DNA from: Shigella phage vb_GEC_SH_GT
Sequence record: OR887633
Reading direction: 5' to 3' (one strand)
Length of the DNA stretch: 64,000 nucleotides
Shown here: in pieces, positions 30,067-30,820 of the stretch
Layout: every line of letters starts with the position of its first letter
How positions within the stretch are numbered: position 1 is the stretch's first letter
Notes under the pieces: generated by a model
Seen by the model: only the letters and a program-made list of their open reading frames with translations
What the model was told of the DNA's origin: nothing
The model's database searches: none
Program-made: the position numbers and the translations under genes

Positions 30067-30142
30067 TGGTCGAGGCAGTAGGGATCGAACCTACGACCCA
30101 GGACTTAGAAGGTCCTTGCTCTTCCTTCTGAGCTATGCCTCG
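30067..30142 (-). tRNA. tRNA-Arg (anticodon UCU)
   Basis: Revcomp folds as a cloverleaf: acceptor CGAGGCA/TGCCTCG, anticodon loop CTTCTAA, T-loop TTCGATC, CCA encoded. Confidence 0.8.
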
Positions 30143-30146
30143 TATT

Positions 30147-30221
30147 TGGCGGACGTGATAGGATTCGAACCTATAACCAATCGCTTAACAGGCGATCGCT
30201 CTGCCATTGAGCTACACATCC
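30147..30221 (-). tRNA. tRNA-Asn (anticodon GUU)
   Basis: Acceptor GGATGTG/CACGTCC, anticodon stem ATCGC/GCGAT, loop CTGTTAA, T-loop TTCGAAT, CCA encoded. Confidence 0.7.
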
Positions 30222-30225
30222 AAAT

Positions 30226-30312
30226 TGGTGGGGAGTGATGGAGTCGAACCACCCGAGTCGCAATGACAATGGATTTACAGTCCACACCGCTACCTCTACG
30301 GGATAACTCCCC
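30226..30312 (-). tRNA. Type-II tRNA, probably tRNA-Tyr (anticodon GUA)
   Basis: Acceptor GGGGAGT/ACTCCCC, anticodon loop CTGTAAA, long variable arm; D-arm pairing irregular. Confidence 0.55.
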
Positions 30313-30321
30313 AAATTAATT

Positions 30322-30396
30322 TGGTGGCCCTGGGTGGAATTGAACCACCATCTGGCGATTATGAGTCGCTTGCTTGAACCTTCCAGCTACAGGGCC
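30322..30396 (-). tRNA. tRNA with CAU anticodon (Met, or Ile if lysidine-modified)
   Basis: Acceptor GGCCCTG/CAGGGCC, anticodon loop CTCATAA, T-loop TTCAATT. Confidence 0.75.
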
Positions 30397-30397
30397 T

Positions 30398-30473
30398 TGG
30401 TGCTGATTGACGGAATCGAACCGCCGACGTCCTCATTACAAGTGAGGTGCTCTACCTACTGAGCTAAATCAGC
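30398..30473 (-). tRNA. tRNA-Thr (anticodon UGU)
   Basis: Acceptor GCTGATT/AATCAGC, anticodon loop CTTGTAA, T-loop TTCGATT. Confidence 0.85.
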
Positions 30474-30478
30474 AAAAC

Positions 30479-30568
30479 TGGCGGAGGCGATAGGATTTGA
30501 ACCTATGAGTCGCCGGAGCGACTGCCGATTTTCAAGACCGGTGCATTAAACCACTCTGCCACGCCTCC
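30479..30568 (-). tRNA. tRNA-Ser (anticodon UGA), type II
   Basis: Acceptor GGAGGCG/CGCCTCC, anticodon loop CTTGAAA, long variable arm, T-loop TTCAAAT. Confidence 0.8.
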
Positions 30569-30570
30569 AG

Positions 30571-30644
30571 TCTCCGCGGCAGGATTTGAACCTGCGACAT
30601 TCTGCTCCCAAAGCAGACGCTCTACCAAACTGAGCTACACGGAG
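30571..30644 (-). tRNA. tRNA-Pro (anticodon UGG), CCA not encoded
   Basis: Acceptor CTCCGTG/CGCGGAG, anticodon loop TTTGGGA, T-loop TTCAAAT. Confidence 0.8.
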
Positions 30645-30654
30645 TAAATTAAAT

Positions 30655-30728
30655 TGGAGCGGATAATGAGAATCGAACTCACATCATCAGATTGGAAGTC
30701 TGAGGTAATGCCATTATACGATATCCGC
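30655..30728 (-). tRNA. tRNA-Gly (anticodon UCC)
   Basis: Acceptor GCGGATA/TATCCGC, anticodon stem TCAGA/TCTGA, loop CTTCCAA. Confidence 0.8.
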
Positions 30729-30733
30729 AAATT

Positions 30734-30820
30734 TGGTGCGAGAAGTGGGACTCGAACCCACAAGGAAATCATTCCGCAGCATTTTAAGTGCTGTGCCTTT
30801 ACCAATTTGACCATTCTCGC
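30734..30820 (-). tRNA. tRNA-Leu (anticodon UAA), type II
   Basis: Acceptor GCGAGAA/TTCTCGC, anticodon stem CAGCA/TGCTG, loop CTTAAAA, long variable arm. Confidence 0.8.

Follow-up and report, generated by a model that had tools for sequence, protein, structure and literature searches.

A 64,000-nucleotide stretch of Shigella phage vb_GEC_SH_GT (sequence record OR887633), called the window below, carries a cluster of nine transfer RNA (tRNA) genes and, immediately upstream of them, a freestanding gene for an HNH endonuclease resembling F-TflIV of phage T5. In all likelihood, this is a T2-type Tequatrovirus tRNA cluster in which an F-TflIV-like HNH cassette overwrote tRNA-Gln and spread by homing. 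The locus departs from that of phage T4 in two independent ways, both involving freestanding homing endonuclease genes: segB stands in T4 where the window phage retains tRNA-Tyr and tRNA-Asn, and in the window a 616-base-pair (bp) F-TflIV-like HNH cassette takes the place of nucleotides (nt) 10-71 of tRNA-Gln.

The tRNA-Gln position and the T2-type background

On the same strand, the T4 record (NC_000866) has the order trna.4, trna.3, trna.2, Gln, Leu, Gly, Pro, Ser, Thr, Ile, segB, Arg, rnaD, rnaC, and e.8. Compared with this record by blastn, the window gave three blocks: 32300-31440 (98.7% identity), covering the upstream open reading frames (ORFs) up to nt 9 of tRNA-Gln; 30823-30377 (95.3%), covering the last 2 nt of Gln, Leu to Thr, and the first 20 nt of Ile; and 30112-29253 (92.7%), covering the 3' part of Arg, rnaD, and rnaC, to e.8. 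The two sides of the cluster were thus syntenic with T4 at 93-99% identity. A 5' relic of tRNA-Gln is followed by divergence into TATTATG..., the start of the HNH gene, and homology to T4 returns with the final 2 nt of Gln (AG) and the 1-nt spacer C before tRNA-Leu. An earlier reading made from the sequence only had placed the HNH gene exactly at the position of tRNA-Gln, and in the alignment to T4 this slot is filled to the nucleotide. The relic ends 5 nt ahead of the HNH ATG, and its GGGA, the sole purine-rich stretch upstream, may provide that ATG with a weak ribosome-binding site.

The 616-bp cassette was found at full length and 97.4-99.5% identity in 63 phage records, and the intact trna.2-Gln-Leu arrangement in 446. 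Sampled HNH-bearing records covered the trna.2 half alone of the Gln query and carried no Gln. HNH and Gln are alternative alleles at one locus in the genomes compared, and such presence/absence polymorphism among close relatives, with an intact empty allele, is what characterizes a homing endonuclease gene of the freestanding kind. The cassette junctions were identical in all nine HNH-bearing phages compared (the window and eight others), so the replacement happened once. These phages had at least six downstream layouts and two upstream ORFs, and they belonged to several species of the International Committee on Taxonomy of Viruses (ICTV). Downstream, they varied in the presence or absence of tRNA-His, SegB replacing Tyr/Asn, a second GIY-YIG/NUMOD3 gene replacing Pro, an ORF replacing Thr, and two alleles of Pro. 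Being found on such varied backgrounds, the HNH allele moved among them, by homing or by ordinary recombination. The remodelling of the cluster by an endonuclease, proposed in the sequence-only reading, is therefore supported comparatively, by the exact junctions and the alternative HNH/Gln alleles; from these we infer the HNH gene as the cause of the Gln loss. A cassette bringing its own tRNA-Leu was also considered, and it was ruled out by the 100% identity of tRNA-Leu to that of T4, T2, and T6.

Two of the phages compared have the gene order of the window, that is, HNH, Leu, Gly, Pro, Ser, Thr, CAU, Tyr, Asn, and Arg. VEc74 (MT932213) matched it in one piece at 98.3% identity but has another upstream ORF (171 amino acids [aa], T2-like), whereas JoYop (OR769032) differs by a T4-type Pro allele and an additional ORF after Arg.

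The cluster region matched over 1000 phage records, nearly all from T4-like phages of enterobacteria, and the 24-kb stretch around it was 96-97% identical to Tequatrovirus phages, e.g., slur03 and slur14. The window belongs to Tequatrovirus. Its cluster lies between trna.2 and rnaD/rnaC/e.8, contains the Ile2(CAU)-Tyr-Asn-Arg block, and is without segB, there being no GIY-YIG ORF among the ORFs of the cluster. The CAU-Tyr-Asn-Arg block was present in 377 phage records at ≥80% coverage. The T2 record (PV958097) has the order Gln, Leu, Gly, Pro, Ser, a 133-aa ORF, CAU, Tyr, Asn, and Arg; its CAU, Asn, and Arg genes match those of the window at 100% identity and its Tyr gene at 98.9%, while the Ile (63%) and Arg (66%) genes of T4 are far from the alleles of the window. 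The order in T6 is Gln, Leu, Gly, Thr, Met, Tyr, segB, and Arg.

This tRNA set has been described previously. Phages T2L, RB1, and RB3 are without segB (PMC2330249, published 2008), and T2L has tRNA-Met(CAU), Tyr, and Asn, with isoacceptor tRNA genes also marked in the figure of that article (PMC2330249). The preferred SegB cleavage site lies inside the tRNA-Asn gene of T2L, and when T4 is crossed with T2L, a stretch of roughly 1.25 kb including Met, Tyr, Asn, and Arg is replaced through SegB (PMC2330249). T4 is without the Tyr/Asn block because segB occupies that position (PMC2330249). As the tRNA-Asn gene of the window is identical to that of T2, the window phage would be a target for SegB of a co-infecting T4-like phage. 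The sequence-only reading had described the set as differing from T4 by extra GUU and GUA tRNAs and by a missing Gln. That difference holds; Tyr and Asn, however, are nothing novel but the published T2-type state, and they are unconnected with the HNH gene.

The closest described cluster is that of T2/T2L (Brok-Volchanskaya et al. 2008, PMC2330249), which shares with the window the syntenic position, the Leu-Gly-Pro-Ser block, an Ile2(CAU)-Tyr-Asn-Arg block at 99-100% identity, the absence of segB, and rnaD/rnaC downstream. T2 differs in keeping tRNA-Gln and in having the 133-aa ORF at the Thr position, whereas the window has Thr, another Pro allele, and the HNH cassette instead of Gln. T4 shares the flanks (trna.2-4 upstream; rnaD, rnaC, and e.8 downstream), the Leu, Gly, Ser, and Thr genes at 96-100%, and a homing endonuclease gene embedded among the tRNA genes. 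Unlike the window, it has Gln, other Ile(CAU) and Arg alleles, and neither Tyr nor Asn, and its endonuclease is the GIY-YIG protein SegB between Ile and Arg, compared with an HNH protein at the Gln position.

The HNH protein and its family

The predicted HNH protein has a CxxC...DH...N...CPNCH core at approximately residues 35-75 and a C-terminal helix-turn-helix-like region. It matched PHROG 14736 ('HNH endonuclease') at E=5e-124 and, by BLASTP, T5 hegA/F-TflIV at 35% identity (E=2e-22) over the HNH core and the C-terminal helix-turn-helix-like segment. Residues C35, C38, H54, N66, C71, N73, C74, and H75 were invariant in comparison with T5 F-TflIV and three other homologues. No match at curated thresholds was obtained for the protein in Pfam and NCBIfam, and the HNH family assignment was based on PHROGs, pairwise homology, and the motif. 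Weak matches to IscB and ZorE, which reflect the shared HNH core alone, were disregarded. The ORF matched HNH models alone, with no match to GIY-YIG (PF01541) or NUMOD3; the GIY-YIG models do match T4 SegB and the ORF at the Pro position of phage Ec_O157kw.

Among the nine phages, 13 synonymous and 0 nonsynonymous substitutions were counted in the HNH ORF, the sole indel being an in-frame 9-bp insertion, and 58 of the 63 near-identical copies were at least 99% identical in protein. The ORF is thus kept intact, in a pattern that argues for purifying selection on the protein.

F-TflI and F-TflII, together with F-TflIV, are situated in the tRNA region of T5 (Akulenko et al. 2004, as cited in PMC2330249). 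In T5, hegA lies 23 bp from tRNA-Ile2, and another two HNH genes extend into tRNA genes, in the case of hegD into a tRNA-Gln pseudogene. F-TflIV (hegA) and the window protein have in common the homologous HNH core and C-terminal helix-turn-helix region and a freestanding position among phage tRNA genes. The window protein differs in its short N-terminus, its position upstream rather than downstream of a tRNA gene, its occurrence in another phage family, and its activity, which is putative. With SegB of T4 and T6 it shares the same cluster and presence or absence among close relatives; the replacement of tRNA genes on homing and the statistical tie of the SegB family to tRNA genes (PMC2330249, PMC13096335) invite the same comparison. 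SegB, however, combines GIY-YIG and NUMOD3, an unrelated catalytic fold, and has another position in the cluster. The window protein is an uncharacterized F-TflIV-like member, SegB-like in manner and not of the SegB family.

Five homologues were taken from the tblastn list regardless of context, and tRNA genes adjoin four of them. The homologue of Edwardsiella phage PEi26 lies between Leu and Met in the same trna.2-4 synteny, that of Aeromonas phage avDM5 1 nt upstream of Leu, that of Salmonella phage SE_PL 66 nt downstream of Leu, and that of Enterococcus phage 113 197 nt downstream of Asn. For the homologue of Staphylococcus phage YCP, no tRNA was annotated nearby. Relatives were also searched for in IMG/VR, where the HNH protein sequence alone found none and an alignment-based query gave 80 loci (77 distinct). 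The control was a MobD-like HNH protein, for which the single sequence gave 3 loci and a 3-sequence alignment 81. A tRNA gene was present within 1.5 kb in 72 of the 80 F-TflIV-like loci (343 tRNAs, 1.37 per kb), compared with 2 of the 81 control loci (4 tRNAs, 0.015 per kb; Fisher p = 9e-34). At 25 loci, a same-strand tRNA begins between -40 and +50 nt from the HNH stop codon, and 20 of these abutting tRNAs are type II (15 Leu, 4 Tyr, 1 Ser), against a background of 24.5% (p = 8e-9). The window has the same layout, the HNH gene and 6 nt being followed by the type II tRNA-Leu(UAA). The MobD-like control is itself encoded in the window, by a second freestanding HNH gene at 15340-16119 on the minus strand (259 aa, motif EKHHIIP...NLVLLTAREH). 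Some IMG/VR loci of the HNH relatives had unusual predicted tRNAs, with a 4-nt anticodon 'taaa' or with CUA (amber-suppressor or 'Pyl'-type); these were located in loci L063, L064, L068 (about 2013-2327), L090, and L096.

A statistical association with tRNA genes has been shown for the unrelated SegB family (PMC13096335), and HNH genes are associated with tRNA arrays in mycobacteria and their phages (PMC5966550). We propose tentatively that F-TflIV-like HNH proteins are a homing endonuclease lineage specialized for phage tRNA clusters, situated typically just upstream of a type II tRNA (Leu, Tyr, Ser), perhaps recognizing tRNA-gene sequence as SegB does the T-arm, and able to overwrite a neighbouring tRNA gene. 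If so, F-TflIV-like and Seg-type enzymes together would be a general driving force by which the tRNA repertoires of phages, with anti-defence tRNAs like tRNA-Tyr among them, are shuffled, trimmed by deletion, and possibly amplified.

Origin and spread of the cassette

The cassette probably spreads during mixed infection: the HNH enzyme would cut the allele that has no HNH gene, at the tRNA-Gln/tRNA-Leu junction or close to it, and the break would be repaired by copying of the HNH-bearing allele, by which the HNH gene would spread and tRNA-Gln would be lost. With its cut site gone, the HNH-bearing allele would be immune.

Codon usage was calculated from 65 non-overlapping ORFs of the window. 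The codons UUA, GGA, UCA, ACA, CCA, AUA, and AGA occurred at 31, 23, 21, 19, 14, 13, and 12 per 1000, respectively; Tyr codons amounted to 44 and Asn codons to 63 per 1000. This fits a supply of heavily used A-ending codons by the seven U34 or lysidine tRNAs of the cluster and of very frequent codons by Tyr and Asn, the classical codon-supply role being understood from the contrast with codon usage in E. coli. CAA occurred at 24 per 1000 despite the loss of tRNA-Gln. As this codon is still frequent, the loss is not explained by lower demand, and it looks like a cost from a selfish element rather than an adaptation.

It seems unlikely, although not far-fetched, that the HNH gene is kept mainly because it benefits the phage, by excluding the tRNA region of competitors or by making breaks through which anti-defence tRNA genes, e.g., tRNA-Tyr, are amplified in tandem or shuffled. 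SegB, a GIY-YIG enzyme of the same cluster, excludes T2L markers (PMC2330249) and amplifies tRNA-Tyr in T6 to escape Septu (PMC13096335), and HNH genes beside tRNA arrays have been proposed to diversify the tRNA repertoire (PMC5966550); the tight tie of the F-TflIV-like family to tRNA clusters and the purifying selection on the protein would also agree with a benefit. The window, however, has no tandem amplification, its nine tRNAs being single copies, and the gain of the HNH gene cost the phage a tRNA for a codon that it still uses often.

The HNH gene might otherwise be a passive passenger, Gln having been lost by one illegitimate recombination and the allele having spread by descent and ordinary homologous recombination, without site-specific cutting. 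T-even phages recombine very frequently, the shared junctions of the nine HNH-bearing sequences point to a single origin, and the region is 97-99% identical among carriers, with the cassette not markedly more conserved than its flanks. We consider this improbable nevertheless, since all 13 substitutions in the ORF are synonymous, as in a protein under selection, the allele occurs with six or more downstream backgrounds and two upstream ones, across several ICTV species, and the relatives of the protein are specialized for tRNA clusters across unrelated phages.

Several points weigh against replacement and spread by an HNH homing endonuclease. The activity of the protein, its cleavage site, and homing are all inferred from comparisons. 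The protein scored 17.3 bits against Pfam HNH (PF01844), below the gathering cut-off of 21.4 bits, and it is without the N-terminal domain of approximately 70 residues that T5 F-TflIV and other homologues have; T4-type Mob HNH proteins are also under the PF01844 cut-off, the MobD-like ORF of the window reaching 18.2 bits. The mutual exclusivity of HNH and Gln was checked on sampled records and nine loci, compared with 63 records in total. The cassette was not clearly more conserved than its immediate flanks, and the nine sequences differ too little for a co-conversion gradient to stand out. After a single replacement, the spread could have been by ordinary recombination and descent, not homing. 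The tRNA-Leu gene is identical in HNH-bearing and HNH-less phages, so the target site would not lie wholly within it. The promoter and the terminator proposed for the transcription unit (see below) are consensus matches alone.

Replacement of tRNA-Gln by a homing HNH cassette does not constitute a new kind of system: the T2-type tRNA set has been published, and the layout of nine genes plus HNH is annotated in GenBank (VEc74 and JoYop). It shows to the nucleotide how a tRNA gene was overwritten by a homing endonuclease gene, and the T-even cluster holds two further swaps, in which Tyr/Asn gave way to SegB and Pro to a second GIY-YIG gene. The latter, a GIY-YIG/NUMOD3 gene between Gly and Ser, exactly at the place of tRNA-Pro in the window, was observed at 1677-2285 in both Ec_O157kw and CM8, and it is the third tRNA-for-endonuclease swap in the cluster. 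With three such swaps, the cluster is a compact natural system whose set of tRNAs is determined by selfish nucleases. The very strong association of the F-TflIV-like HNH family with tRNA clusters, with its bias toward the 5' side of type II tRNAs, is also worth keeping. Since phage tRNAs have counter-defence functions, host range and the design of phage therapy are affected by nucleases that rearrange these tRNAs or raise their copy number.

The nine tRNA genes and their flanks

The whole 64-kb window was searched for tRNA genes with ARAGORN, and Rfam RF00005 was used as a second method; membership was defined by the gathering score (29 bits) and a 7-nt anticodon loop. ARAGORN gave exactly nine tRNA genes, all on the minus strand at 30067-30820, each a single copy, in the transcription order Leu(UAA), Gly(UCC), Pro(UGG), Ser(UGA), Thr(UGU), CAU, Tyr(GUA), Asn(GUU), and Arg(UCU); no tRNA-Gln was found anywhere in the window. 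All nine genes belonged to RF00005 at or above the gathering score, eight of them at 59-74 bits. The sequence-only reading had derived the same anticodons and outer coordinates by hand folding and had proposed running a tRNA predictor, with which it now agrees, including on the missing Gln. The order it had given for T4 (Gln-Leu-Gly-Pro-Ser-Thr-Ile-Arg) is that of the T4 record, to which segB between Ile and Arg is to be added. The features are listed in Table 1.

Table 1. Predicted features of the tRNA cluster and its surroundings in the window, in order of transcription
Feature	Position	Strand	Basis
T4-early-promoter-like site, TTTACA-17-TACTAT with TG	32461..32489	-	consensus scan, weak
trna.2 homologue, upstream neighbour as in T4	31546..31833	-	ORF; T4 annotation and homology
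tRNA-Gln 5' relic, TGGGAATTA = nt 1-9	31440..31448	-	alignment with T4 trna.2-Gln-Leu
Inserted segment, 616 bp, replacing nt 10-71 (62 bp) of tRNA-Gln	30824..31439	-	blastn and alignment against T4
Freestanding HNH endonuclease gene, 202 aa, F-TflIV-like	30827..31435	-	ORF; PHROG; homology to T5 hegA
tRNA-Leu(UAA), type II	30734..30820	-	ARAGORN; Rfam 59.3 bits
tRNA-Gly(UCC)	30655..30728	-	ARAGORN, Rfam; 98.6% identity to T4 and T2
tRNA-Pro(UGG)	30570..30644	-	ARAGORN, Rfam; second allele, no encoded CCA
tRNA-Ser(UGA), type II, encoded CCA	30479..30568	-	ARAGORN, Rfam; T2-like, 98.9%
tRNA-Thr(UGU)	30398..30473	-	ARAGORN, Rfam; 98.7% identity to T4
CAU tRNA, read as tRNA-Ile2	30322..30396	-	ARAGORN, Rfam; T2-type allele
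tRNA-Tyr(GUA), type II	30226..30312	-	ARAGORN; Rfam 30.2 bits
tRNA-Asn(GUU)	30147..30221	-	ARAGORN, Rfam; 100% identity to T2 gene
tRNA-Arg(UCU), T2-type isoacceptor	30067..30142	-	ARAGORN, Rfam; 100% to T2, 66% to T4
T4 rnaD homologue (stable 'species 2' RNA)	29946..30065	-	86.6% identity to annotated T4 rnaD
T4 rnaC homologue (stable 'species 1' RNA)	29801..29939	-	97.8% identity to annotated T4 rnaC
Intrinsic-terminator-like hairpin, 10 bp then TTTTT	29727..29750	-	consensus scan; conserved in T4

The CAU tRNA was labelled Met by ARAGORN. Its best matches in E. coli were annotated as tRNA-Ile (81.6% identity at full length, median two copies per genome), and an elongator tRNA-Met was ruled out, the closest E. 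coli genes being tRNA-Ile. The acceptor stem, GGCCCTG/CAGGGCC, gives the pairs C4-G69 and C5-G68, which are determinants for TilS. An identical gene of phage Ozark is named tRNA-Ile2-CAT by RefSeq, and the gene of the window was 100% identical to that of T2 and 63% to tRNA-Ile of T4. The CAU tRNAs of T4-like phages have long been taken as lysidine-modified tRNA-Ile (PMC1524935). Nearer to cellular tRNA-Ile2 than to tRNA-Met and having both acceptor-stem pairs, the CAU tRNA is by its sequence a lysidine-type tRNA-Ile2, predicted to read AUA, and the counterpart of T4 tRNA-Ile in another allele.

The irregular D-arm that the sequence-only reading had seen in the putative tRNA-Tyr was recovered in the ARAGORN cloverleaf, a type II structure with a 4-bp D-stem, a C12xC23 mismatch, and a T10-G25 wobble; with Rfam, the gene was borderline (30.2 bits against the gathering score of 29). 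It was 98.9% identical to the tRNA-Tyr gene of T2, 97.7% to that of T6, 96.6% to that of the rV5-like phage nomo, and 85% to that of T5. Seven tRNA-Tyr genes from four genera were parsed (window, T2, T6, nomo, a Karamvirus, T5, and the T5-like GSP044), and pairs were scored by explicit cloverleaf parsing, the MAFFT alignment being out of register at the 5' end for the T5-like genes; the D-arm parse of the Karamvirus gene was unreliable. The C12xC23 mismatch was kept in the window, T2, T6, nomo, T5, and GSP044. Pair 11-24 covaried (C-G to T-A), as did the anticodon stem (G-C to A-T and T-A to C-G), the acceptor stem had double changes, and the variable arm and T-arm were identical in all seven phages. 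The pattern is that expected of a constrained functional RNA, with the odd D-stem as a family trait.

According to its annotation, T5 tRNA-Tyr is an efficient suppressor after anticodon replacement. Septu and retron-Eco7 are host nucleases that cut tRNA-Tyr, and the tRNA-Tyr of T6 or T5 counters them (PMC13096335): that of T6 was detected by northern blotting and, when over-expressed, rescues T6 from Septu (PMC13096335), and that of T5 resists retron-Eco7 through a distinctive variable loop, according to the summary of earlier T5 work in the same article (PMC13096335). By analogy, tRNA-Tyr may have a counter-defence role in the window phage. That the gene is instead a decaying pseudogene, the odd composition of the cluster coming from erosion rather than function, is highly improbable, as its narrow Rfam score, its mismatched D-stem, the pseudogene mark on the copy in the VEc74 record, and the description of T6 tRNA-Tyr as relatively unstable (PMC13096335) stand against a mismatch conserved in the T2, T6, rV5-like, and T5-like genes, compensatory changes in pair 11-24 and the anticodon and acceptor stems, the annotated suppressor function in T5, and the northern blot and rescue under Septu in T6 (PMC13096335). 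The pseudogene flag in VEc74 is probably a scoring artefact.

At its 5' end, tRNA-Leu starts 6 nt past the HNH stop codon, and the gene is 100% identical to that of T4, T2, and T6. tRNA-Pro shared 84% identity with the allele of T4 and T2, and the changes in its anticodon, T, and acceptor stems are compensatory. VEc74 has this second allele too, and variants 1-2 nt off were present in G10400, KarlGJung, and pSe_SNUABM_01. Both Pro alleles segregate within the HNH-bearing phages, from which recombination inside the cluster at the scale of single genes follows.

Downstream of tRNA-Arg, the rnaD and rnaC homologues were identified from their homology to annotated T4 genes; in Rfam, even a permissive threshold gave no family for them. 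The rnaC homologue had a stable fold (z = -4.97) with a T-arm-like 3' hairpin, and it was much better conserved in comparison with T4 than rnaD (97.8% vs 86.6%). The terminator-like hairpin probably ends the tRNA/rnaC transcription unit, and the promoter-like site is a weak candidate for co-transcription of trna.4-trna.2, HNH, and the tRNAs. One transcription unit probably runs through the HNH ORF and the tRNAs, likely as a single precursor, which would have the order trna.2, HNH ORF, Leu, Gly, Pro, Ser, Thr, Ile2(CAU), Tyr, Asn, Arg, rnaD, rnaC, and terminator-like hairpin.

Other variation was observed in related phages. At the tRNA-Thr position, T2 (2840-3241) and pSe_SNUABM_01 (1626-2108) have ORFs of 133 and 160 aa, respectively, with no Pfam match, and several relatives, unlike the window, have other family-less ORFs (116, 157, or 108 aa) after tRNA-Arg. 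The rV5-like phage nomo, a Vequintavirus unrelated to the window phage, carries CAU and Tyr tRNA genes (2507-2580 and 3066-3151) 98.7% and 96.6% identical to those of the window (30222-30400) in a different gene order, which suggests that single tRNA genes may be exchanged between phage families. The HNH-bearing phages Ozark (2606-2681) and KarlGJung (1634-1709) have one more tRNA gene, for tRNA-His(GUG), located between Asn and Arg. Together with Tyr and Asn, it makes up three of the four tRNAs with GUN anticodons (the queuosine family), and it may be speculated that this set relates to host anticodon nucleases.

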